DNA of 64,000 nucleotides from a virus, in IMG/VR virus record IMGVR_UViG_3300042991_001118, positions 32,001 to 96,000 of that record; one strand, 5' to 3'. This document shows positions 1-32,241 of the stretch, one piece after another. Numbering within the stretch: the stretch's first letter is position 1; each line of letters opens with the position of its first letter. The translations under genes were made by a program, and so were the position numbers. The notes under the pieces are model-generated. The model was not told the origin of the DNA. It did no database searches and worked only from the letters and a program-made list of their open reading frames with translations.

Positions 1-102
1 CAATACAGAAATGTACCTCTCCGACGCATCCAATAATGCAGCGTGTATCCCCTGCTGCACCACCTCAATCCTCTTAACCTCTTCTTTTGTCCTCTTACTC
101 AT
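1..102 (-). CDS. hypothetical protein, 5' part (runs off the window edge)
   Basis: ATG at 102 with AAGGAG RBS upstream; open frame MSKRTKEEVKRIEVVQQGIHAALLDASERYISVL to position 1. Confidence 0.6.
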   Translation of the reverse strand, partial: MSKRTKEEVKRIEVVQQGIHAALLDASERYISVL

Positions 103-268
103 TTGAATATCTCCTTATGCAAAACCTCAAATTGACTCTGGAATAAACTCAAAGAACAAATTAAATATAAAACGAAAATGGAAATGTAGTCAAAACTGTA
201 GTCAACCCCAGAACCAATATCATGAGAAAATATAGAAATACCCAACTTGCTAGTTGGCAAAAATATTC

Positions 269-296
269 TTGACTATGCAAAATAACTTATTATACT
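269..296 (+). promoter_or_regulatory. sigma70-type promoter of the transposase
   Basis: TTGACT-N16-TATACT inside the left IR; AGGAG RBS before the ATG at 339. Confidence 0.55.
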
Positions 297-338
297 CCTA
301 ATAATAAATCTAATATCAATAAAAATTAGGAGTTATAC

Positions 339-1166
339 ATGAAAAAAGATCAAGAAACAACTATCATCACAATTTACATAATCATTGACGCTCTTTGTGA
401 AAATTTATTACGCCATCCAGCACAAAAACAGAAATTAACGGATGCTGAAATAATAACGATAGCAATATGTTCTGCCATTTTCTTCAACAGCAATCATGAC
501 AAAGCTCTTTCCTGGCTGCGCATAGCTGGCTATTTCCCTGAGATGCTTAGTTTATCCAGGTTCAATCGAAGGATACATCGTCTAAAAGAGTTTATCAAAT
601 TCTGTTTCGAGAGCGTCAGCGAGTTGTTTCTTACGAAAAAATTATACATCGCCGATTCTATGCCTTTGCCTGTATGCAAAAGAGTGCGGGCTTGTCGAAA
701 TAAAAAAGTCCGAGGCAGAGAATACTATGGCTGCTGTGTTGCAAAAAATGAAAAATTCTTTGGATTCCGGCTGCATCTCATTGTGGATACCCAAGGAATT
801 CCTGCATCTGTCGCCATTATGCCTGGAGCATACCACGATATCACTCCTGTGTATGAAGTTACGTCGCCGTTGCCGGAACAATCGACTGTCATGGGAGATA
901 AAGCATACAACTGTAAAAATGTCGAAGATGCTTTGAAAGAATTCGGCACCACACTGATGCCCAAACGTCGTAAAAATATGAAAATGCAGTGGTCTTTGTT
1001 CGAGCAATATTTTATCATAGGTCAACACAGAAGGCAAATAGAAACATCGTTTAGCATTCTCTCCGACACTATGGGACTCAATCATATCAAAACTACGACA
1101 CTAAAAGGCTTTATGATTAAAACCTACGCTGCCGTGCTCGCTATGATTTTCTATATCGTTTTCTAA
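339..1166 (+). CDS. IS982 family DDE transposase
   Basis: 275 aa; KLTDAEIITI and LSRFNRR N-terminal motifs; IADSMP, FFGFRLH, GDKAY and RRQIETSF (D-D-E triad). Confidence 0.92.
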   Translation: MKKDQETTIITIYIIIDALCENLLRHPAQKQKLTDAEIITIAICSAIFFNSNHDKALSWLRIAGYFPEMLSLSRFNRRIHRLKEFIKFCFESVSELFLTKKLYIADSMPLPVCKRVRACRNKKVRGREYYGCCVAKNEKFFGFRLHLIVDTQGIPASVAIMPGAYHDITPVYEVTSPLPEQSTVMGDKAYNCKNVEDALKEFGTTLMPKRRKNMKMQWSLFEQYFIIGQHRRQIETSFSILSDTMGLNHIKTTTLKGFMIKTYAAVLAMIFYIVF

Positions 1167-1173
1167 AATCATC

Positions 1174-2646
1174 TTACAAACAAACCATACCTGCATTTTG
1201 CAACACGAGGCTGCACTCTTTAGATGGGACATAATCTTTTTGCATCGCAAAACCGACCCGCATGCCCATTTCTCCGTATCCTTTGATTACACAATATGTT
1301 CCCTTATATCGAACCACATCTCCTTTTCTCAGTTCGTCGTATCCGCTTCGTATGACTTTCTTTCCAGGCAGCACACGCAAACGTGCCAGAATTTGTTTGC
1401 CTTTTTTAGCGACTAGCTCTGTCAGGCTGTCAGACTTTTGTCCCGTTCTTTTGTTGCGATTTTTAGCCACGATTTTTGTGCCATCTTTATAGTTTCTCTC
1501 CCTTGTGGCATGGATAAGCTGGCGATGGTGCCTTCGGAACTGTTTGTATTCATATACGATAAGGTCGCTAGATTTTATCGAGCCTATTTTATCTTCGTCA
1601 GAAAAGGAGACCAGATATGCGTCTATGCAATGGCTTTTGGGAAGTCCCAGATTTTGCCGTTTTTCTTTGGTCTCGTATCCATAAGTTAGACAAACAGTTG
1701 AAACAATTTGCATCAACCATTCATAAAATAAAGGCATGATTGTGTTTAGAATCGTCGTATGAACATACTTCTTACACATGCCTGCAAATACAGCCTTGAC
1801 CTGGGCATCTACTTTCTCATGGCGATGCACTTTCTCATGGCATTTTGCGCAAAGGGTGATCAGATTTTCCGGATTGTCCCCGCCTTTCTGGCTTGCCCAT
1901 ATTACATGGTGTACGTGCAAATTCCCTTTTGTGTTACCACACAACTGGCACGTATGCTTGTCTCGGCAAAGCACGTATTCCTGGCTGTTGGCGTACCCTT
2001 TTTTTCTGCCGTTTTGGTACTGCACGCCTTGAACGGAGGGATTGTCAAGTTTGTGGATGTCGAATTTGCCATATTCCAGATGCACATGCGCTATAGGCAA
2101 TATTTTAGCTGCTTTGTCACTGAATCTTTTGTGCGTTTCCAACAAATGGCTGGCCGTAGGCGTGAGCCAACCTCTGTTTCGGCGGCGATTATGAAAGCGG
2201 ATCGGCTTAGGTTTTATCCCTTTGCAAAGCAAATTTTCGGCGGTATTCGATATTTTGTATCTCTTTTCACCAAAGTATGTTTGCGCTTTTTTCGCCCTGC
2301 GTTTTCTAACCAAACGACGATGCCTCCTTCTGCTTTGCCTGTGCATCCTGCGTTCGGCCATATTTTCGGACACTTCCTTGCTTCTAGCTTCCACATGTGC
2401 CGCAAATACTACTTCTCCATTCTCTTTTCTCACGACTAGCGCGATATCTTTTCCGCCTGGGTCAATTCCCATAATCAAAGGTTGAGTGTAGGATGTAGTA
2501 TCATATAAAAGTTGTATCGTGAATGGTTTACGACGTATTACTTTTGCAAGGCCGGCTTTTAGCAACTTTTTCACTTTGCCAAATCTTTTCGTCGGCATGA
2601 GTGGCTGGCCATTTTCCGATACGACATAAACGTAATTATTTTCCAT
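1174..2646 (-). CDS. iscB: IscB RNA-guided endonuclease (OMEGA), about 490 aa; true start is the ATG at 2646
   Basis: PLMP motif (GQPLMPT), RuvC-I GIDPG, Arg-rich bridge helix, RuvC-II HLEYGKFD, HNH CQLC..HVHH..NLITLCAKCH, RuvC-III KSHCIDA; catalytic residues appear intact. Confidence 0.95.
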   Translation of the reverse strand: MENNYVYVVSENGQPLMPTKRFGKVKKLLKAGLAKVIRRKPFTIQLLYDTTSYTQPLIMGIDPGGKDIALVVRKENGEVVFAAHVEARSKEVSENMAERRMHRQSRRRHRRLVRKRRAKKAQTYFGEKRYKISNTAENLLCKGIKPKPIRFHNRRRNRGWLTPTASHLLETHKRFSDKAAKILPIAHVHLEYGKFDIHKLDNPSVQGVQYQNGRKKGYANSQEYVLCRDKHTCQLCGNTKGNLHVHHVIWASQKGGDNPENLITLCAKCHEKVHRHEKVDAQVKAVFAGMCKKYVHTTILNTIMPLFYEWLMQIVSTVCLTYGYETKEKRQNLGLPKSHCIDAYLVSFSDEDKIGSIKSSDLIVYEYKQFRRHHRQLIHATRERNYKDGTKIVAKNRNKRTGQKSDSLTELVAKKGKQILARLRVLPGKKVIRSGYDELRKGDVVRYKGTYCVIKGYGEMGMRVGFAMQKDYVPSKECSLVLQNAGMVCL

Positions 2647-2649
2647 ATT

Positions 2650-2835
2650 TTGCTCATTTATAAAAAATTCCGAAGAATAATTCCACACGAAGGTGGTCGG
2701 TCTCCCTGAACTGGGTGCAGGATTGGCATAGAGCCTGGGATTGGGAAGTTCATCCCAGGGTACTACCTGCATCCGTGTGTCACGTCCCTACTCAACTAGC
2801 AAGCAGGGTAACCCTGATAACTACAGCGTTCAATC
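2650..2835 (-). ncRNA. omegaRNA (HEARO-like) scaffold of IscB; 5' boundary uncertain (2809-2835)
   Basis: Minus strand has TAGTTGAGTAG..., CCCTGGGATG-AACTTCCC-AATCCCAGG stem, TGCAGG/CCTGCA pairing and CAGGGAGAC pseudoknot-like segment, directly upstream of the PLMP start. Confidence 0.8.
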
Positions 2836-2933
2836 CTAAAAACTTCGTGATACAGACGAAAACTAAAGCAAAATTCAATAAAGTCTGCACCAGGGCGAAT
2901 CTCGATAAAAGCTCCTTTGCTTTTCCCTTGTCA

Positions 2934-3137
2934 TTATTCTTCTGCTGCTGTTCCATTCTTGTCCTCACTTATGTTTTTCCTTATCGGCCTACCAGTCCTG
3001 ACTACCTCATGAGGCATTTTATACCTGTCCTCTAAGGCCCTCCGAATTATCGTAACAACAGGGGACCCAGTCGCAAACATCTCCTCTTCGATTTTCTCGA
3101 AAATATTGTCCGGAATCCTTACAACCGTGTTTTTCAT
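2934..3137 (-). CDS. ribbon-helix-helix (Arc/CopG-like) repressor
   Basis: 67 aa; KNTVVRIPDNIFEKIEE...VTIIRRALE fits the RHH pattern; GGGG RBS. Confidence 0.65.
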   Translation of the reverse strand: MKNTVVRIPDNIFEKIEEEMFATGSPVVTIIRRALEDRYKMPHEVVRTGRPIRKNISEDKNGTAAEE

Positions 3138-3180
3138 CTTTTTTTATTCCCCTTCTTTTATTATTTTCTTAATATAAACA

Positions 3181-3270
3181 ATTTTAAATAATAAAACATA
3201 AAGATATTTATTTGTCAAGAAGAAAATAAAATATTTTATGCTTTATTATTTAAAATTTTTATGTTATAAT
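3181..3270. promoter_or_regulatory. divergent promoter/operator region with a long imperfect inverted repeat
   Basis: About 30-bp arms 3181-3210 / 3228-3256 flank a minus-strand TTGACA (3213-3218); plus-strand extended -10 TGTTATAAT (3262-3270). Confidence 0.55.
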
Positions 3271-3321
3271 ATTCTATGCAATCTTATATGGCTTTGTTTA
3301 ATTTTATGTTAGGAGATAATA

Positions 3322-4098
3322 ATGGATAATAATATCTTAATGAAGATAGAGGAAAAATTGCTTGGTGGAGAGTTGGTTCGGACCGCAAATGCAAGAGAAC
3401 TTCATGAGAAATTGCAGGTGTCTACGTATTTCACTACGTGGATACAAAGAAGATTGTGTGAGGCTCAAGCGATTGAAGGACAAGACTTTATAAGCCTTTC
3501 AAATTTGGAAGCCTCTGGGCAGACTAGTAAAATGATATATGTCTCTGCAAATATGTGCCAGCACATCGCGATGTTGGAGCGAACCGAAATTGGTAGGAAG
3601 GTGCGCCAGTACTTTATCGATGTCGAGAAAAAAGTAAAGGATATCGTATTGGAACAGACCCTCAAGGAAAAGGCCATGAGGGACTTTAAAGTGTACAAAG
3701 AATTAGGCGAGATTGTACAATTGCCTACGTCCACGATTATTTCGGAAGCATCAAAACTCGTGGACAGAACCTACGGCACAAACTTCGTCGAGTTTATTTC
3801 TAAGTCCCCACTCCTCGATAACGTGAAAGAATCAGACGAATACCTGGAACCCACAGAACTCGGAAAAATTCTGGGGATATCTGCAATCTCCTTAAATAAA
3901 AACCTGGAATCGCTCGGACTTCAAGATAAAACCGGAAATTCCTGGACTCCTACAGCAATTGGGAAAAAATTCTGCTTTGTACACCAGTGGTCCACTAGGG
4001 CAAAATCTGGTTACAACTTGAAATGGAATGTCAGGGAAATCTCTAATCTCCTTTTGAACAGAAATCCAACCCCACGTGTGGTTGGTGATGGCGGATAA
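3322..4098 (+). CDS. phage antirepressor (AntA/AntB N-terminus, KilAC-like C-terminus)
   Basis: [41 protein letters not shown]; C-terminal PTELGKILGISAISLNK..W.PT..G. Confidence 0.85.
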   Translation: MDNNILMKIEEKLLGGELVRTANARELHEKLQVSTYFTTWIQRRLCEAQAIEGQDFISLSNLEASGQTSKMIYVSANMCQHIAMLERTEIGRKVRQYFIDVEKKVKDIVLEQTLKEKAMRDFKVYKELGEIVQLPTSTIISEASKLVDRTYGTNFVEFISKSPLLDNVKESDEYLEPTELGKILGISAISLNKNLESLGLQDKTGNSWTPTAIGKKFCFVHQWSTRAKSGYNLKWNVREISNLLLNRNPTPRVVGDGG

Positions 4099-4389
4099 TC
4101 GATAAAAGACGAGGGGTTTGCAGTCTGGGATAATTGAATTCCAAAATTCAATTTCAAAAATCAGAAAAAAGTTCTGGGGTGTAGCGACCCCCTCCACATC
4201 TTTTCCATCCGCCGTAAACCCTTCGGACACCCCTCTAAGCCAACCCCTGCCTAAGCCCCTGAGTGCCGCAAAGAGGGGACAAAAAAGACCCAACAAGACC
4301 AAAAGGAGACAAGGGGACACCTTTCACCACACTCGTACACTTCAATAGAAGCCAGTGGCTGCATTCTGATGAGTCCAACCGTCTATTGA

Positions 4390-4790
4390 GTCCATCTAAT
4401 CCATCCACGTGGCTATATTACATCCCAATCGCCTCGACAATGAACACCCAACCCATCCATCCCATCCCTTTTATCCTATCTAACCCATCCCATCCATCCC
4501 TTTGACCCCCTTTAGCCCGACCGCCCTTTCCATTCCATCCATTTTGTCCTATCCAATCCATCCCATCCATCCCTTTCATCCATCCCTAGACTCGATTACA
4601 GCCATTTTTATCCATACCAAAGACCTTTTCCATCCCTTTTATCCATCCAGGTCTATCCCCGGGCTAAAAACGCCTCCTACGTGGAGAAAAAGACCAAAGA
4701 GATATTCCCATCCATCCATTCCATCCCACCCAGCCTTTTAGCCCGACCGCCTTTTCCCCTCCATCCCTTCCATCGATTCCATCCTTATCA
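4390..4790. repeat. C-rich low-complexity tract of CCATC(C) units
   Basis: Dozens of CATCC/CCATC copies, all in one orientation; TTTAGCCCGACCGCC duplicated at about 4511 and 4737. Confidence 0.8.
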
Positions 4791-4889
4791 ACAATGCAAT
4801 AGTTGTACACCACTTTCACAGGATAAAAAAGACAACAGGAGAGAACAACCCTAGAGCCTTAATAGGAATCATTGTCGCAACTAGCCCAC

Positions 4890-5170
4890 AACCCAGGACA
4901 GAACAGACAGAAAAGATTTTTTAGGATTGGAACATAGGGAAGGTAAAGGGTGCAGGGTGATTCCATAGGACAAACCCGACAAGATAGACAGAAAATCCAG
5001 GAGAAAATCGACAAGACAGACAGAACAGACAGGAAAAAACCGATAGACCGGACAGAAAAGCCAGGACAGGACAGACAGAAACGACTTTTCATCCAGGATT
5101 TCCAGGCATGACAAGGGAAAAAGACCGTTTTTTAGGGTATTTTCGAGAAAAAACAGACAAAAAAGACATT
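4890..5170. repeat. purine-rich tract of GACA(G) units
   Basis: Many GGACAG/AGACAG/GACAA copies, single orientation. Confidence 0.75.
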
Positions 5171-5580
5171 TTTCACAGGATTCATGAGAAAATTACTAGA
5201 CGGAAAAGATTCCAGCACAGCAACATGTGGAAATTTTAAAAAATCGTCGCGATAAGACGAGAAAGATGAATAGGTTATAGCCGTGTTAAAAAATATGCTT
5301 GGACGAAAAAAATAAAAACGACTCGACAGATAAAAAAGATAAGGCTTACAGAGGACTTTCGTGAAAGTGAAAATAGGAAAAAAACGAAAAATGGGTAGCT
5401 CTGTGAGGCTTATCCTACGGCCTTCTCCGCACCTATGCCAATCAAGAGGATTACCTGCCTTATCTGCATGGATGGAAGACTAAAAGTCTTAGTAACACAA
5501 GAGATAGGACAATATTGAGAAACCTGGCATGTATATCAGTATACCAGAATGAGATATTCCGGGGAATGTCCCACGTAAAA

Positions 5581-5634
5581 TGCAGACTAAAGTCTACATA
5601 TCTCTAGGGATGCAGACTAAAGTCTACATATCTC
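5581..5634. repeat. 24-bp direct repeat x2 with an internal palindrome
   Basis: TGCAGACTAAAGTCTACATATCTC at 5581-5604 and 5611-5634. Confidence 0.85.
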
Positions 5635-5989
5635 CGGGGGAATAATGAGAAGAAGGATAAGCCGTGGTGGGTGGAGTCCTATCGGACTATGGAATGGATG
5701 GCAATTTGTTCCTAGCAAATCACATCTACTAGGAACATTTTAAATATATCGAGGACACGAAGATACAGAAGATTTTTCTAAAAAAACAGCATTTGTTCCT
5801 AGCACTTTCCAACTTTCTTTTTTTACCAGGACGAAATTTTGAATTTAAAACCGAACGACCATTCTCAAGAAGAGAACCACGCGCGATGACAATTAAAAGA
5901 ATTTCTCGAAGAAGAGAAAATCGTGAAATAGAATGAAGCTCTGTCGGGATTTTTTCTCGAATCCAAAGTGGCTTTCCCCCCAAAAATTT

Positions 5990-6805
<816 letters not shown>

Positions 6806-6827
6806 GGTTATGTCCGTATAATTATAC

Positions 6828-6918
6828 GAATCAATATACAGATATAGATATTATTGCGAATCATTATGAATCATTATACAGATATAGATATCGTTACGAA
6901 TCATTATGAATCATTATT
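6828..6918. repeat. about 40-bp tandem duplication with GAATCATTAT sub-repeats
   Basis: TATACAGATATAGATAT..CGAATCATTATGAATCATTAT occurs twice. Confidence 0.75.
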
Positions 6919-6937
6919 CAATAATATATTAGGATTT

Positions 6938-6964
6938 GAACTGTCAAGGATTTCTTGACAGTTC
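6938..6964. promoter_or_regulatory. palindrome giving back-to-back TTGACA -35 boxes
   Basis: GAACTGTCAAG-GATTT-CTTGACAGTTC. Confidence 0.45.
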
Positions 6965-7052
6965 GAGATGTGCTAGGATATGGTGATTCGAGGTGCATGT
7001 GGATTAGAACCATTGGGGTTATTGGGATACAGGGGTATGTGGTTAGAATTCA

Positions 7053-8625: not shown

Positions 8626-9117
8626 TCAGCCTCTGCATCCACACCTTTTTTGTCGATATACCATAGTTTGAATTTTCCCGTAGATAGAATTAGCATACTG
8701 TGGTTCTGTTTCTTCTACCATTCCAGAATTAAAGCATACTGGACATATATTGGCCTCGACCAATAATTGACCAGCCCTACAATCACAAAAGGTGCCATGT
8801 ACTATCCCTTTGCAATAGCACTTTGGACACGATTCCAATTTTCCCCCACGCATCTGATATTCCGAGATGATTTCATATGGCTGTATTAGCCTTTCTTCCC
8901 GTATGAACTTGGCTATTGTTGCTCCGTTCAATTTGTCCTGTTCCGTCCTGGTGGAAGCAGATTCTTCAGAGCTTTCATCAAAAATTTCATCGGATTTTTG
9001 CCTCATATCCAATCCTTTCACGTTTTTTTCCTGATCGTTAGGTTGTTCCGGGATTCCCGGTATCCAGAATTTCGATTTCCTTTCCATCGATGACCCAGAA
9101 TGCCATGTCCAGATCAA
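8626..9117 (-). CDS. Cys-rich (DnaJ-like CxxCxxxG) hypothetical protein; start probably near 9008
   Basis: CPKCYCKG, CDC, CPVCFNSG, CGC. Confidence 0.55.
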   Translation of the reverse strand: MIWTWHSGSSMERKSKFWIPGIPEQPNDQEKNVKGLDMRQKSDEIFDESSEESASTRTEQDKLNGATIAKFIREERLIQPYEIISEYQMRGGKLESCPKCYCKGIVHGTFCDCRAGQLLVEANICPVCFNSGMVEETEPQYANSIYGKIQTMVYRQKRCGCRG

Positions 9118-11197
9118 CTAACTCCTGCATTTTCTCTCGCGCTTTCTTAGCGGATCCGCAGCCTCGTATCCTCGCGACGTATAGTGTCCTTGGTTTAATC
9201 CTAGAGAGTCCTTTTTTCTTTGCGAAGTCTATGATTGCGTTCTGTTCGACTTCCTCCGGGCTTTTCTTTGAAAGTCCTCTAGCCTTTTCATTGTGGCTTT
9301 CAAAGTACTGGGAAAATTCAATAGCCTTCTGGATGATTTGAACGTCGCATATCTTTGCGTCGTGCAGCAGGCAAAGGCATAGTGCAATGCGAAGGCAATG
9401 GGCCGGCATCTTTGACCAGAAGTCGCCTTCTTTTCCGTTGCACGCGTCGTAGTACTGTCCGAACACGGCCTCGGCTTCATCCGACATGATGATTCTTGGC
9501 GATTCCGTTTTGCAACATTCGTAGATGCTTCGGAGTTTGTCCTTGGCTTTTTCTCGGATCTCCGAATCAATTTTTTCGGAGTCCCATTTTCTTTGCATTG
9601 CTTCTGGATAGCAGCATACCAGACGGTCAAAGAATCCGTCATTGGCGTTCCCAGATAGCAGGGGAAGTTTGTCTGGAACGATTCCTCCGAGGATGGATAG
9701 GTGTGGGCTTCTAATAAAGATTGCGGGCTTTCCCTTCCTATCGATTTTCGCGAAGGTTCCAGACCAGGCAGACAAGTAGAATTCCTTGTCCGCACCTTTA
9801 CCTGCCCTGTACTGGTCCATGGAGTTTATCCAGGACGACAATTCATCCCGCATTAACAGGAGAGATGGGTTCCCATTAAGAATAGGACCCAAACTTTCCG
9901 TCGTCGCGTCCGTCGTGAGGAGGGTTTTGTCGCAAATTTCTTTAGGCGGTTCAGGTCGCTCTGTATCCGGGGATCCTTTTTTCGCGTTTTTCTTCCACTC
10001 TGCCAGGGCTTCCCGATACTCTTCCTTTTCCACCTCGAATTCATTCCGATTCGCCTCGTTTTCACCACGGAGTTCCTCCTCGATTTCAAAGACGACACCT
10101 AGCGTCTTTTCCATCGCCGGGGTTTTCCCGCTTCCTGGCGATCCGATTAACGCTGAGTACATTATCGCCTTGGTTGACCAGTCCTTGGATGGGATCGTTA
10201 TCGTAGCGTTCCCTGAGAGCAGGGAAACTGCGGACAATAAGGAAACCCCTGGGTAATCGATATTCGTCGAGAGATTTCCAGAGATGTTTTTCACGTATTT
10301 CTGGAACAGTTCCGGCAGTACATGTGTCGGAAATGGCTTTACCTTCACGTCCTCTCCTATGGACGCTTCTTTCCTGACCTCTTCCAGTATTTTCCCAAAC
10401 CTATCGCAGAATGTATCAGGACTTTGCACGTAAAAATCAGACGCGTCCTTCACAGGGAGTGTGACGACGTGCAGATTCCTATGCCATCCCAAAACCTTTA
10501 GGTGTTTCTTTAGACCAGATTCCATGGTATCCCCACCCTGGTCTGGGTCCTTCAAGAGGTATATCGTCTTTGCATGTTCCACCTGTGGGTAGTTCAATTT
10601 CGCGAACATCGAAGCCCCTGGTATCCCTAAAGCTGGGTATCCATTCAACCAGAGCGTCCAGCAGTTCGATTCGCCCTCACATATAATCAGTTCCGTGGCG
10701 CATTTATTCATCTCTAGCCATTGCCCATATACTCCGATGGGTAGGTCTCTTGTTCTTCCAGTCGTATCCCATCGCGAACCACTAGAACTTATACCTTTCC
10801 GGATTCTGTTCCGGAGTGCGTTTTTTCCATTCCCATCCAGATACGGGATGCATATACCATCTTCTTCGTTATAAACTCCCAACCCCTGGAGAAATTTCAA
10901 TGGAATGAATTTTTTCTTTGCCAGTTCTTCTGCGGTCGGGACGCATTTTACTTCCGAGTAAGTTTTTGTTTGTGTCGTGCTCGTCGGTCTCATATCTCCC
11001 CCGGTCAACCCCATAGACTTCACAATATCTTCAAAACTGCAACCTGCTTTGCAATTGAGCAGGATTTTACTTTCTTTCCCTTCCCCAATTACCAGGGAGT
11101 TATGCTTATCATCATGGCATGGGCATTTGGACGTGTACCCACCCGTCGTTAATCTTCGGACTCCATTTAATTTTTTCAGAACTTCTGTGATTTCCAT
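9038..11197 (-). CDS. primase-helicase replication protein (Zn-binding + TOPRIM + DUF3987/YfjI-like P-loop)
   Basis: KCPCHDD...NCKAGC; IICEGE..ALGIPG..DPDQGG..KDASD; GSPGSGKTP, DATTESL, RDEL, GFFDR. Confidence 0.88.
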   Translation of the reverse strand: MEITEVLKKLNGVRRLTTGGYTSKCPCHDDKHNSLVIGEGKESKILLNCKAGCSFEDIVKSMGLTGGDMRPTSTTQTKTYSEVKCVPTAEELAKKKFIPLKFLQGLGVYNEEDGICIPYLDGNGKNALRNRIRKGISSSGSRWDTTGRTRDLPIGVYGQWLEMNKCATELIICEGESNCWTLWLNGYPALGIPGASMFAKLNYPQVEHAKTIYLLKDPDQGGDTMESGLKKHLKVLGWHRNLHVVTLPVKDASDFYVQSPDTFCDRFGKILEEVRKEASIGEDVKVKPFPTHVLPELFQKYVKNISGNLSTNIDYPGVSLLSAVSLLSGNATITIPSKDWSTKAIMYSALIGSPGSGKTPAMEKTLGVVFEIEEELRGENEANRNEFEVEKEEYREALAEWKKNAKKGSPDTERPEPPKEICDKTLLTTDATTESLGPILNGNPSLLLMRDELSSWINSMDQYRAGKGADKEFYLSAWSGTFAKIDRKGKPAIFIRSPHLSILGGIVPDKLPLLSGNANDGFFDRLVCCYPEAMQRKWDSEKIDSEIREKAKDKLRSIYECCKTESPRIIMSDEAEAVFGQYYDACNGKEGDFWSKMPAHCLRIALCLCLLHDAKICDVQIIQKAIEFSQYFESHNEKARGLSKKSPEEVEQNAIIDFAKKKGLSRIKPRTLYVARIRGCGSAKKAREKMQELVDLDMAFWVIDGKEIEILDTGNPGTT

Positions 11198-31662: not shown

Positions 31663-32241
31663 TTACCCCTTTCTCTTCGTCACCCAGACCTTTACTTTGT
31701 CTTCACGCTCTTCTGATGCGTTTAATTGCAAACATCTGATGACGCAAACAACAAAAACACCATGCAACGCGATGTATTTTGTATTGTTAGACGAAAAGTC
31801 AATCCCGAATAAAATTGCGGAGAACATGAGAAGGAAAATCAACAACATGAATGTTGAAGACCACAAAACAAACATAAATCCTTTCGTCGCTACGATAAAT
31901 TCGTACAACAAGGAAGCAAATTTTTTCTGCACCACAACGCAATTATCCGTACGCTTTTTTTGTTCTGTATGATTTTCCTTTTGTGTTTCTTGTGATGTTT
32001 TTGGGTTTTCCACGATAGGTTCCGGTGTTTCTTGTGATGTTTTTGGGTTTTCCACGATAGGTTCCGGTGTTTCTTGCTCTATTTTGGGATTTTCCACAAT
32101 AGGTACCTGTGTTACCTTTGGTGTCCCGATTACAAATTCGTCCTGTAGTATTGGTTTTTTAAAATTCATGAGCATTGTTTGATCTACTGGGGATGTTTCA
32201 CACACCGTTGATGCCGCATCATTCTTTTCTTCGTTTTGCAT
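31663..32241 (-). CDS. membrane protein with a 14-aa repeat x3
   Basis: IVENPKxxQETPEP repeats; two C-terminal hydrophobic helices. Confidence 0.65.
   Translation of the reverse strand: MQNEEKNDAASTVCETSPVDQTMLMNFKKPILQDEFVIGTPKVTQVPIVENPKIEQETPEPIVENPKTSQETPEPIVENPKTSQETQKENHTEQKKRTDNCVVVQKKFASLLYEFIVATKGFMFVLWSSTFMLLIFLLMFSAILFGIDFSSNNTKYIALHGVFVVCVIRCLQLNASEEREDKVKVWVTKRKG

Follow-up and report, generated by a model that had tools for sequence, protein, structure and literature searches.

The window analysed here, a stretch of 64,000 nucleotides from a virus record (IMG/VR IMGVR_UViG_3300042991_001118, positions 32,001 to 96,000), carries near its start two converging genes, one for an IS982-family DDE transposase and one for an IscB RNA-guided nuclease. 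Together with an omegaRNA they lie within a discrete element of 2,570 bp (Table 1).

Table 1. Features of the composite element and its immediate flanks, in positions of the window
Feature	Position	Strand	Basis
ATATTT motif, candidate TAM or target motif, 6 nt outside the IscB-distal end	228..233	-	Recurrence in flanks on the IscB-distal (D) side
Whole composite IS982-IscB element, 2,570 bp	240..2809	.	ACCC...GGGT termini conserved in L002, L003 and L051; X2-X4 contigs limited to 241-2809
Transposase-side terminal inverted repeat (ACCCAACTTGCTAGTTG), IscB-distal "D" end	240..256	+	Same repeat in IscB-less sister IS982 elements
Transposase promoter-like site, TTGACT-16-TATACT, 10/12	269..296	+	Consensus match only
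IS982-family DDE transposase, 275 aa	339..1166	+	NCBIfam NF033520, 189.1 bits (cut-off 130); Pfam DDE_Tnp_1_3
IscB RNA-guided nuclease, 490 aa (PLMP, split RuvC, HNH, C-terminal region)	1174..2646	-	NCBIfam NF040563, 264.5 bits (cut-off 175); Pfam RRXRR, 168 bits; HNH
omegaRNA scaffold (3' end may run into the IscB start)	2647..2809 (about)	-	Consensus fold of 5 homologous leaders; partial HEARO match 2729-2762
First omegaRNA hairpin (guide-adaptor hairpin), predicted; 5' arm is the IscB-side repeat 2795-2809	2784..2809	-	Helix 1: 8 pairs, 3 with compensatory change
Predicted 16-nt guide TGTAGTTATCAGGGTT, flanking phage DNA	2810..2825	-	Position directly 5' of the scaffold

The transposase is placed in IS982 by the curated family model, and the models for IS5 and IS4 score far under their own cut-offs against it. 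Residues D106, D187 and E235 are invariant across 22 homologs and, from their motif context (DSMP, GDKA and IETSF), are predicted to form the DDE catalytic triad. Conserved DDE residues and short terminal repeats that start with AC likewise place the element in this family, although an IS982 element normally measures about 1 kb and has the transposase as its only gene, without a passenger, and the present one reaches 2,570 bp with IscB and an omegaRNA on board.

IscB is regarded as the ancestor of Cas9 and in the literature is tied to IS200/IS605 elements, which are without inverted repeats. The open reading frame in the window spans 1174-2772, with the real start at the ATG at 2646. We found that the protein matches the PLMP, split RuvC, bridge helix and HNH architecture of the curated model, has the RuvC and HNH catalytic residues, and aligns to OgeuIscB (PDB 7xht) with an E value of 2e-92, the motifs GIDPG, LEYGKFD, HVHHV...N (HNH histidine and asparagine) and HCIDAY (HxxD) falling on those of OgeuIscB. 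In one related locus, L002, about 120 aa are inserted into IscB where Cas9 has its REC lobe.

The terminal inverted repeats of the phage element are ACCCnnnTTGCTAGT, at 240 and 2809. A sequence-only reading of this DNA had described an 18-nt repeat pair (239-256 and 2793-2810, 16/18 complementary), convergent stop codons 7 bp apart, a full-length IscB and no visible target-site duplication. The repeat is indeed present, with the true ends one base further in on either side; the stops are separated by exactly 1167-1173; IscB is intact (NCBIfam guided_IscB, 264 against a cut-off of 175); and our search of the element flanks likewise found no duplication around the window copy. By itself the repeat is no better than chance, another 17-nt pair at 88% occurring within the same 4 kb, but we take it to be real because homologous loci have matching termini: ACCCTRATTGCTAGT termini enclose both transposase and IscB in L002 (15/15), L003 and L051.

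Next to IscB lies the omegaRNA. The consensus fold of the five homologous leaders has 37 pairs and is 89% paired, with compensatory change in 15 pairs against 6.8 in shuffles (0/500), and the Rfam HEARO model gives a partial match of 19.4 bits against a gathering threshold of 83. Matches to miRNA and snoRNA families in Rfam were set aside as chance, and the interior of another locus, L050, does not align to the omegaRNA. In each of the five cases in which its 5' end could be read, the omegaRNA begins at the IS982 repeat, and it adjoins a repeat in both of the gene orders that we describe below. Since the first omegaRNA hairpin would thus take its 5' arm from the IscB-side repeat, the guide is predicted to be the flanking DNA; this hairpin holds the position equivalent to stem loop 1 of OgeuIscB, which directly follows the guide (PMC9640706). 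The predicted 16-mer has its sole match in the window at its own position. Furthermore, the guide-side flank at 2811-2825 resembles a degraded repeat, and the sequence of the original empty site may therefore differ from the present guide.

We then compared the locus with its relatives. In all eight transposase loci at 60% identity or above with enough flank (from Actinomycetota, Planctomycetota, unclassified MAGs and metagenomes), IscB adjoins the transposase, while no locus at 46% identity or below has IscB beside the transposase. Contigs of further transposase hits agree in length with those of IscB hits (5552, 2600, 2769 and 2356), which is no more than a hint of linkage. Repeats enclose both genes in the window, L002, L003 and L051, and the same repeat marks single ends in L004, L008-L011 and L023. 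Two gene orders occur; in the co-directional form (L003 and L051) the repeat follows the transposase stop and IscB lies upstream, still within the repeats. The IscB-carrying clade is monophyletic (support 100/100, branch 0.77), with sizes of 2.55-3.0 kb, and IscB stays intact with its catalytic motifs down to about 57-65% identity, across phyla. Sister elements without IscB (L005, L012, L015, L017, L019 and L022) are 902-906 bp long, about 905, and share the repeat ACCTTGATTGCTAGTTG..., which makes the repeat ancestral to the IS982 lineage and older than the capture of IscB. Among the relatives, transposase and IscB distances are uncorrelated (r about 0), a comparison that is uninformative on co-divergence because all identities lie between 56% and 72%. 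Given these distances and the intermixing of the two gene orders in the tree, the modules may have re-assorted.

The transposase occurs in 1 of 401 sampled Planctomycetota genomes, a figure that shows rarity only. A blastn search of the element against INPHARED phages gave no match, and scans of IMG/VR with the transposase, with IscB and by alignment found no relatives; the sole IMG/VR match to the pattern of the repeat-omegaRNA junction, L069, was rejected as chance, having neither gene nor the repeat.

We found several indications that the unit moves as a whole. In L051 a perfect 6-bp duplication, TTCTCC (6/6), surrounds the whole unit, target duplications of 6/7 and 4/5 flank L050 and L003, respectively, and 4 of 9 sister elements have perfect duplications of 5-7 bp; the flanks of L002 have none. 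Three sequencing runs, X2 (soil, 2023), X3 (soil, 2012) and X4 (biofilm, 2014), contain pieces 95-99% identical to the element and only within 241-2809, and one X2 contig departs at 2809 into a different flank. As L051 has its duplication and near-identical copies have another flank, we infer that the IS982-IscB unit is mobile. The phage record holds a single copy of the element and G001 a single full copy. No match was found to a gapped pattern joining both flanks, as an empty site would show, nor was a sister phage found, and relatives of the AntA neighbour are at most 40% identical, too distant for such a search. Read mapping left uncovered stretches inside the element, a joint 290>992 at depth 2 in the X2 reads, short loose ends at 255 and 2705, and low-identity matches around 3190-3300, none of which we counted as evidence.

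These comparisons bear on the central claim of the sequence-only reading, that an IS982 DDE transposon had taken up IscB with its omegaRNA to form a single mobile unit. The eight close loci and the L051 duplication support it, and X2-X4 offer the near-identical copies that it called for, in an X2 contig with a different flank. Copies of this transposase without IscB, which would have spoken for a one-off nesting, were looked for and none appeared among the eight readable loci at 60% identity or above; nor was any member of the clade seen with ends of the IS200/IS605 type that would mark an IscB independent of IS982.

Next, we examined the sequences outside the ends. Just beyond the duplication on the IscB-distal side, 6 of 9 elements have an ATATTT-like motif (offset 5-7, at most one mismatch), a score that none of 20,000 shuffles equalled, for a motif that was picked after looking, from nine flanks. 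The motif is present in 0 of 5 IscB-proximal flanks, and the sister clade without IscB has it in 2 of 21 flanks. Furthermore, this asymmetric flank motif tracks the orientation of IscB, and not that of the transposase, in the window and in L009. We therefore regard the ATATTT-like motif as a candidate TAM for IscB.

In its nuclease the element is of the same type as ISC and other IS200/IS605 systems (OgeuIscB, PDB 7xht and 7utn; K. racemifer ISC; Kapitonov et al. 2016, PMC4810608; Kato et al. 2022, PMC9640706). As in ISC, the omegaRNA lies upstream of the gene, the scaffold runs from the element boundary and flanking DNA forms the predicted guide, and as in OgeuIscB the order is guide, stem loop 1 or guide-adaptor hairpin, and then the nexus and central long-range stems (PMC9640706). 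ISC elements, however, have a Y1 TnpA, subterminal hairpins and 4-nt insertion sites and are without terminal inverted repeats or duplication (PMC4810608), whereas the IS982-IscB elements have 15-18-bp inverted repeats, an internal DDE transposase and, in relatives, 5-7-bp duplications; the first hairpin in the window is about 9 bp and built on the transposase repeat, against 14 bp in ISC systems. With symmetric repeats and only 7 bp behind the IscB stop, the element does not belong to IS200/IS605, and a search for Y1 TnpA (PF01797) in the phage record and in G002 found none; G003 has a Y1 TnpA beside a different IscB, 32% identical.

A parallel in architecture is offered by DDE-associated TnpB, known from branches DDE-1 to DDE-6 with IS630, ISL2 and IS1031 types (Altae-Tran et al. 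2023, PMC10691335). There too an OMEGA nuclease resides in a repeat-bounded DDE transposon with the guide-RNA end near the transposon end, and solo-nuclease derivatives retain the same ends, to which L051 may be likened. TnpB, in contrast, has RuvC only and a 3' guide read outwards, while the IscB here has RuvC and HNH and a 5' guide read inwards. IS982 is absent from the families named in that study, and neither it nor a 2026 review (PMC13565253) mentions IscB with a DDE transposase; in the searchable literature we found published TnpB-DDE pairings and no description of an IscB-DDE partnership. Ordinary IS982 elements share the NF033520 family, the repeat and, where one is seen, the 5-7-bp duplication with the IscB lineage but are about 0.9-1 kb long with one gene, whereas the IscB lineage has the IscB-omegaRNA passenger, a repeat that appears to double as RNA structure and the asymmetric flank motif.

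We conclude that 240-2809 is probably an autonomous IS982 insertion sequence with an IscB-omegaRNA (OMEGA) module inside its repeats, from an old monophyletic sub-lineage in which this cargo is the rule, and we propose the following mechanism for its transposition and homing. The DDE transposase would bind the 15-18-bp repeats, move the whole unit and duplicate 5-7 bp of the target. Read-in transcription from the flank, where a co-oriented phage gene (2934-3137) lies upstream, would produce the omegaRNA; its scaffold begins with the final base of the repeat, so that the neighbouring 16 nt of host DNA would become the guide. The repeat would thus have two roles: the transposase would bind it, and it would provide the 5' arm of the guide-adaptor hairpin. 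IscB and its omegaRNA would cut the element-free site, that is, the flank with an ATATTT-like TAM past the duplicated bases on the far side, and would spare the occupied site because there the repeat (ACCCT...) takes the TAM position. Repair from the occupied copy would re-install the element, leading to retention after excision or to homing into co-infecting phage genomes. Cleavage, homing and transposition by the window element are predicted here from sequence comparison.

We also considered that IscB is simply carried along as cargo, selfish or neutral and functionally unconnected with IS982, the remnant of an ISC element that landed at an IS982 end and lost its own ends, with a guide that serves not homing but perhaps conflict between elements or between phage and host, or nothing. 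The window copy without duplication and with an odd guide-side flank, the single copies per genome and the distances that do not co-vary would all fit. So would the published view that OMEGA nucleases bring DDE transposons little gain: cut-and-paste by a DDE transposase already breaks the donor, so that a homing nuclease is of less evident use there than in IS200/IS605 (PMC13565253). The stable association of OMEGA nucleases with scarless transposases has also served to explain why they are rare in DDE transposons. An idle cargo would nonetheless hardly account for catalytic motifs kept across phyla, for an omegaRNA in exact register with the transposon end in two gene orders, for a first hairpin that covaries with the repeat, or for a flank motif on the IscB-distal side that is missing from most flanks of the IscB-less relatives (present in 2 of 21), and we consider this explanation unlikely.

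Much less probable still is that IscB acts in transposition itself, by RNA-guided choice or preparation of the target or by a donor-flank cut that aids excision, instead of in homing after the event. A guide made of the DNA abutting the transposon end could in principle act on the donor junction, and the flank motif does follow IscB orientation in the window and L009; yet the IscB-less sisters with the same repeats transpose with normal duplications, a flank-derived guide cannot direct the element to a new target, and cutting of the element's own junction is disfavoured because the repeat, which takes the TAM position there, is unlike the conserved flank motif. That an IS982 and an independent IS200/IS605-type IscB element merely came to lie together here by chance, or through a single nesting event, is barely credible, for even though inverted repeats of similar size arise by chance in the same 4 kb and the window copy has no duplication, the arrangement and its repeats recur in at least eight independent loci with different flanks, the L051 duplication encloses the complete unit, cover in other metagenomes is confined to exactly 241-2809, and 7 bp between the stops and a scaffold that begins at the repeat leave no room for IS200/IS605 ends.

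Returning to the IS982 insertion sequence with its OMEGA module, the broader proposal is that an IS982 lineage fused its terminal repeat with the guide-adaptor hairpin of an IscB omegaRNA and that, in phage populations too, a flank-derived guide together with an ATATTT-like TAM directs its homing or retention, a proposal that we judge evenly poised between right and wrong. If true, this would be the first IscB-DDE partnership, with OMEGA homing independent of scarless IS200/IS605 or IS607 excision. The lineage offers a natural case for testing the benefit of homing to a transposon that makes duplications, and it provides compact IscB variants that resemble OgeuIscB and come with a TAM prediction open to test. 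An IS982 lineage that keeps IscB intact, and in which one DNA segment is both transposase binding site and RNA hairpin, would widen the known routes by which RNA-guided nucleases spread.

A protein search returned about 36 IS982-type transposases at 60-92% identity to the one in the window, and below these the next hits stood at 47% or less. Among the 47 loci that we retrieved by scanning genome and metagenome collections, an IscB gene adjoins the transposase gene in every locus at 60% identity or above with a readable neighbourhood, and none was found beside the transposase among the loci at 46% or below. The IscB-linked loci come from an unclassified MAG (L002, on a 1.48-Mb contig), from Actinomycetota (L003), from Planctomycetota (L004, and L051 as a second copy in the same genome) and from metagenome contigs (L008, L009, L011 and L023). 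The genes converge, transposase rightward and IscB leftward, in the window, L002, L008, L009 and L011, and are co-directional, IscB first, in L003, L004, L023, L051 and probably L010. The IscB-linked transposases fall into a single clade of a maximum-likelihood tree (support 100/100, branch 0.77), inside which both gene orders are intermixed. Where copies could be counted there is one per genome, and no co-variation is seen between transposase distances and IscB distances.

We found that the 18-nt inverted repeat described from the window alone (239-256 and 2793-2810) is present and complementary at 16 of 18 positions. By itself such a repeat is within chance, the same 4 kb containing a 17-nt repeat at 88%, and we accept it as real because homologous loci show the same termini. 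The 15-mer ACCCTRATTGCTAGT lies at both ends of the transposase and IscB unit in the window (240 and 2809), L002 (4880 and 7889, 15/15 complementary), L003 (677 and 3228) and L051 (1180 and 3150), and is also the single readable end of L004, L008, L009, L010, L011 and L023. In the IscB-less sister clade (about 45% identity), elements of 902-906 bp share the repeat ACCTTGATTGCTAGTTG...; since these elements have the same repeat without IscB, it belongs to the IS982 lineage and predates the IscB acquisition. Collectively, IscB beside all readable transposase loci at 60% identity or above and common repeats bracketing both genes support the sequence-only reading that an IS982 transposon captured an IscB-omegaRNA module (239-2835).

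The parent IMG/VR record of 116 kb encodes a portal, terminase, tail sheath, tape measure, baseplate and primase-helicase, and is therefore a tailed phage. The two genes of the element leave 7 bp between their stops. The IscB aligns with the solved OgeuIscB (7xht; E 2e-92), including the catalytic motifs of RuvC and HNH. Its homologs begin with MxxxxVYVxSxxGxPLMPT, so that the true start is the ATG at 2646, giving a product of 490 aa; the 126 nt in frame upstream are RNA, with a fortuitous frame, and not IscB protein.

Features of the window in and around the IS982-IscB element
Feature	Position	Strand or direction	Remarks
Small phage gene left of element	ends near 103	leftward	
Transposase, 275 aa	339-1166	+	NCBIfam IS982-transposase model, 189 bits (cut-off 130); Pfam DDE_Tnp_1_3
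IscB open frame	1174-2772	-	NCBIfam RNA-guided endonuclease IscB model, 264 bits (cut-off 175); Pfam RRXRR, HNH
Predicted guide	2810-2825	-	adjoins scaffold start; host DNA
Phage gene right of element	2934-3137	leftward	co-oriented with IscB
Tandem repeat	4967-5066		32-nt unit
Tandem repeats	near 6064 and 6215		9-nt units
Tandem repeat	6718-6802		17-nt unit x5, perfect
Tandem repeat	6828-6931		40-nt unit
Primase-helicase gene	9038-11197		

Upstream of the primase-helicase gene, about 3 kb of the window without a convincing gene (4100-7000) carry several tandem repeats; these may be iterons, and the region a replication origin. Within this region, a sequence of about 23 nt (GATATGTAGACTTTAGTCTGCAT) occurs twice in direct orientation at 5567-5641 (minus strand), each copy with an internal palindrome; the pair may serve as operators or binding sites, and an Rfam microRNA match there is spurious.

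The region upstream of IscB extends unbroken to a repeat 146-191 nt away in both gene orders. A consensus fold of only five leaders (window, L002, L003, L023 and L051), scored on the very alignment from which it was derived, has 37 pairs, with 89% of pair cells paired. Compensatory change occurs at 15 pairs, compared with 6.8 ± 1.8 in shuffles (0 of 500 reaching this count) and at most 4 with the partners slid. The Rfam HEARO model of the IscB omegaRNA matches one hairpin only (2729-2762; 19 bits for a gathering score of 83, E 0.049 in a 341-nt search). In the first helix, repeat bases 2-9 pair with a segment some 5 nt downstream (window, CCCTGCTT...GAGTAGGG), with compensatory change in 3 of 8 pairs. 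As the leader reaches the repeat and its first helix uses it, the scaffold begins exactly where the transposon ends, so that the guide can only come from adjoining host DNA, a predicted arrangement like that of IS200/IS605 elements, where the guide comes from DNA flanking the element end. The predicted fold also shows the order of OgeuIscB, where stem loop 1 (the guide-adaptor hairpin) comes directly after the guide and precedes the nexus and central stems (PMC9640706). To judge from weak promoter-like sites, the phage gene upstream of the omegaRNA (2934-3137), which has the same direction, could provide read-in transcription.

Just outside the IscB-side end, window 2811-2825 (plus strand) reads ACCCTGATAACTACA, which matches the repeat of the element at 11 of 15 positions and at all of the first 8. 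It faces the opposite way, one base from the true repeat, forming an abutted repeat-repeat junction that may be left over from an earlier element or from a tandem or circle junction; the IscB-side flank of this copy may have been rearranged. Owing to this resemblance, the predicted guide is complementary in part to the ends of IS982-type elements. Consistent with the sequence-only reading, no target-site duplication was found at the window copy, nor at L002. Given the repeat-like flank, the guide that this copy now specifies may differ from the site of the original insertion.

Duplications at other copies, together with contigs from other samples, speak for mobility of the unit. L051 (contig 152 of its genome; 1,971 bp) is flanked on either side by a perfect 6-bp duplication, TTCTCC, L003 by one of 5 bp (4/5 match), and 4 of 9 sister elements without IscB by perfect ones of 5-7 bp. 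The genome of L002 also contains an element of 930 bp that lacks a credible gene (L050; contig 4, 993-1922), with the same repeats, ACCCTGATTGCTAGT, at its ends and a 7-bp duplication (6/7 match), probably a miniature derivative mobilised in trans by the L002 transposase. L051 itself is a deletion derivative of the co-directional form, in which the repeats, omegaRNA and IscB are kept and the transposase is cut down to its final 50 codons; in a second such derivative (protein P0023), an in-frame fusion joins IscB residues 1-120 to a transposase that begins at about residue 20.

We compared window 1-3300 with metagenome contigs from three other studies (X2, soil, 2023; X3, soil, 2012; X4, biofilm, 2014). 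These contigs cover 241-2809 only, mostly at ≥95-99% identity, leaving the phage flanks uncovered, and one X2 contig reaches 2809 and then enters unrelated sequence. X1, the probable source sample, covers the whole stretch and does not count as independent. Contigs of 2.55-2.77 kb, the element size, carry many of the IscB and transposase homologs; multi-copy repeats look like this in short-read assemblies, although this is only a hint. A search for an empty site found none.

With elements oriented by IscB, and going outward from the IscB-distal repeat, ATATTT (at most 1 mismatch) occurs at a distance of 5-7 nt, immediately past the bases that are duplicated, in 6 of 9 flanks, a small sample in which the motif was picked post hoc. 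Three of the six, those of the window, L003 and L051, have ATATTT without mismatch. None of 20,000 shuffles reached this count, and the best hexamer of whatever sequence attained at most 4 loci (60 shuffles). The 5 IscB-proximal flanks lack the motif, and among 21 flanks from the IscB-less sister clade it occurs in only 2. A reconstructed empty site puts ATATTT directly 3′ of the protospacer, the expected IscB TAM position, making it a candidate TAM or co-selected target motif.

The IS982-borne IscBs of L002 (5842-7683, minus strand), P0132, P0137 and P0141 have 613 aa, with an insertion of about 120 aa directly after the arginine-rich bridge helix, the site of the REC lobe in Cas9. Directly upstream of the L002 element lies an IS607-type pair (2109-4596, minus strand), a serine recombinase with a MerR-like N-terminus and a 490-aa TnpB-like protein, so that two different OMEGA-type elements stand side by side.

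ISC (IscB) elements are reported to be without inverted repeats and to use Y1 TnpA (PMC4810608), unlike the element in the window, which has inverted repeats and a DDE transposase. Y1 TnpA was not found in the phage record or in genome G002. The Planctomycetota genome with two IS982-borne IscB elements also holds a canonical Y1 TnpA adjoining a distant IscB, 32% identical to that of the window (L057/L085; contig 89, 444-2146), hence both forms coexist in one genome. Published carriers of TnpB include DDE transposons with inverted repeats of the IS630, ISL2 and IS1031 types (PMC10691335; review PMC13565253), and neither article speaks of a DDE transposase paired with IscB. In the searchable literature, from which many subscription papers are missing, no paper joining IS982 and IscB was found, which is not proof of absence.

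Most likely, the DDE transposase would move the whole unit, IscB with its flank-derived guide would cut unoccupied copies of the site, and recombination after cutting would restore or spread the element. The occupied site would be spared, as we propose, because the repeat fills the TAM position. The missing duplication at the window copy, its repeat-like flank, the single copies, the missing empty site and the lack of co-variation count against or complicate this homing reading. Taken together, these results support an OMEGA nuclease in a DDE transposon, a known kind of association that is new here in pairing IscB with IS982. What distinguishes the element is a dual-use repeat, at once transposon end and arm of the first omegaRNA hairpin, together with a testable TAM prediction.
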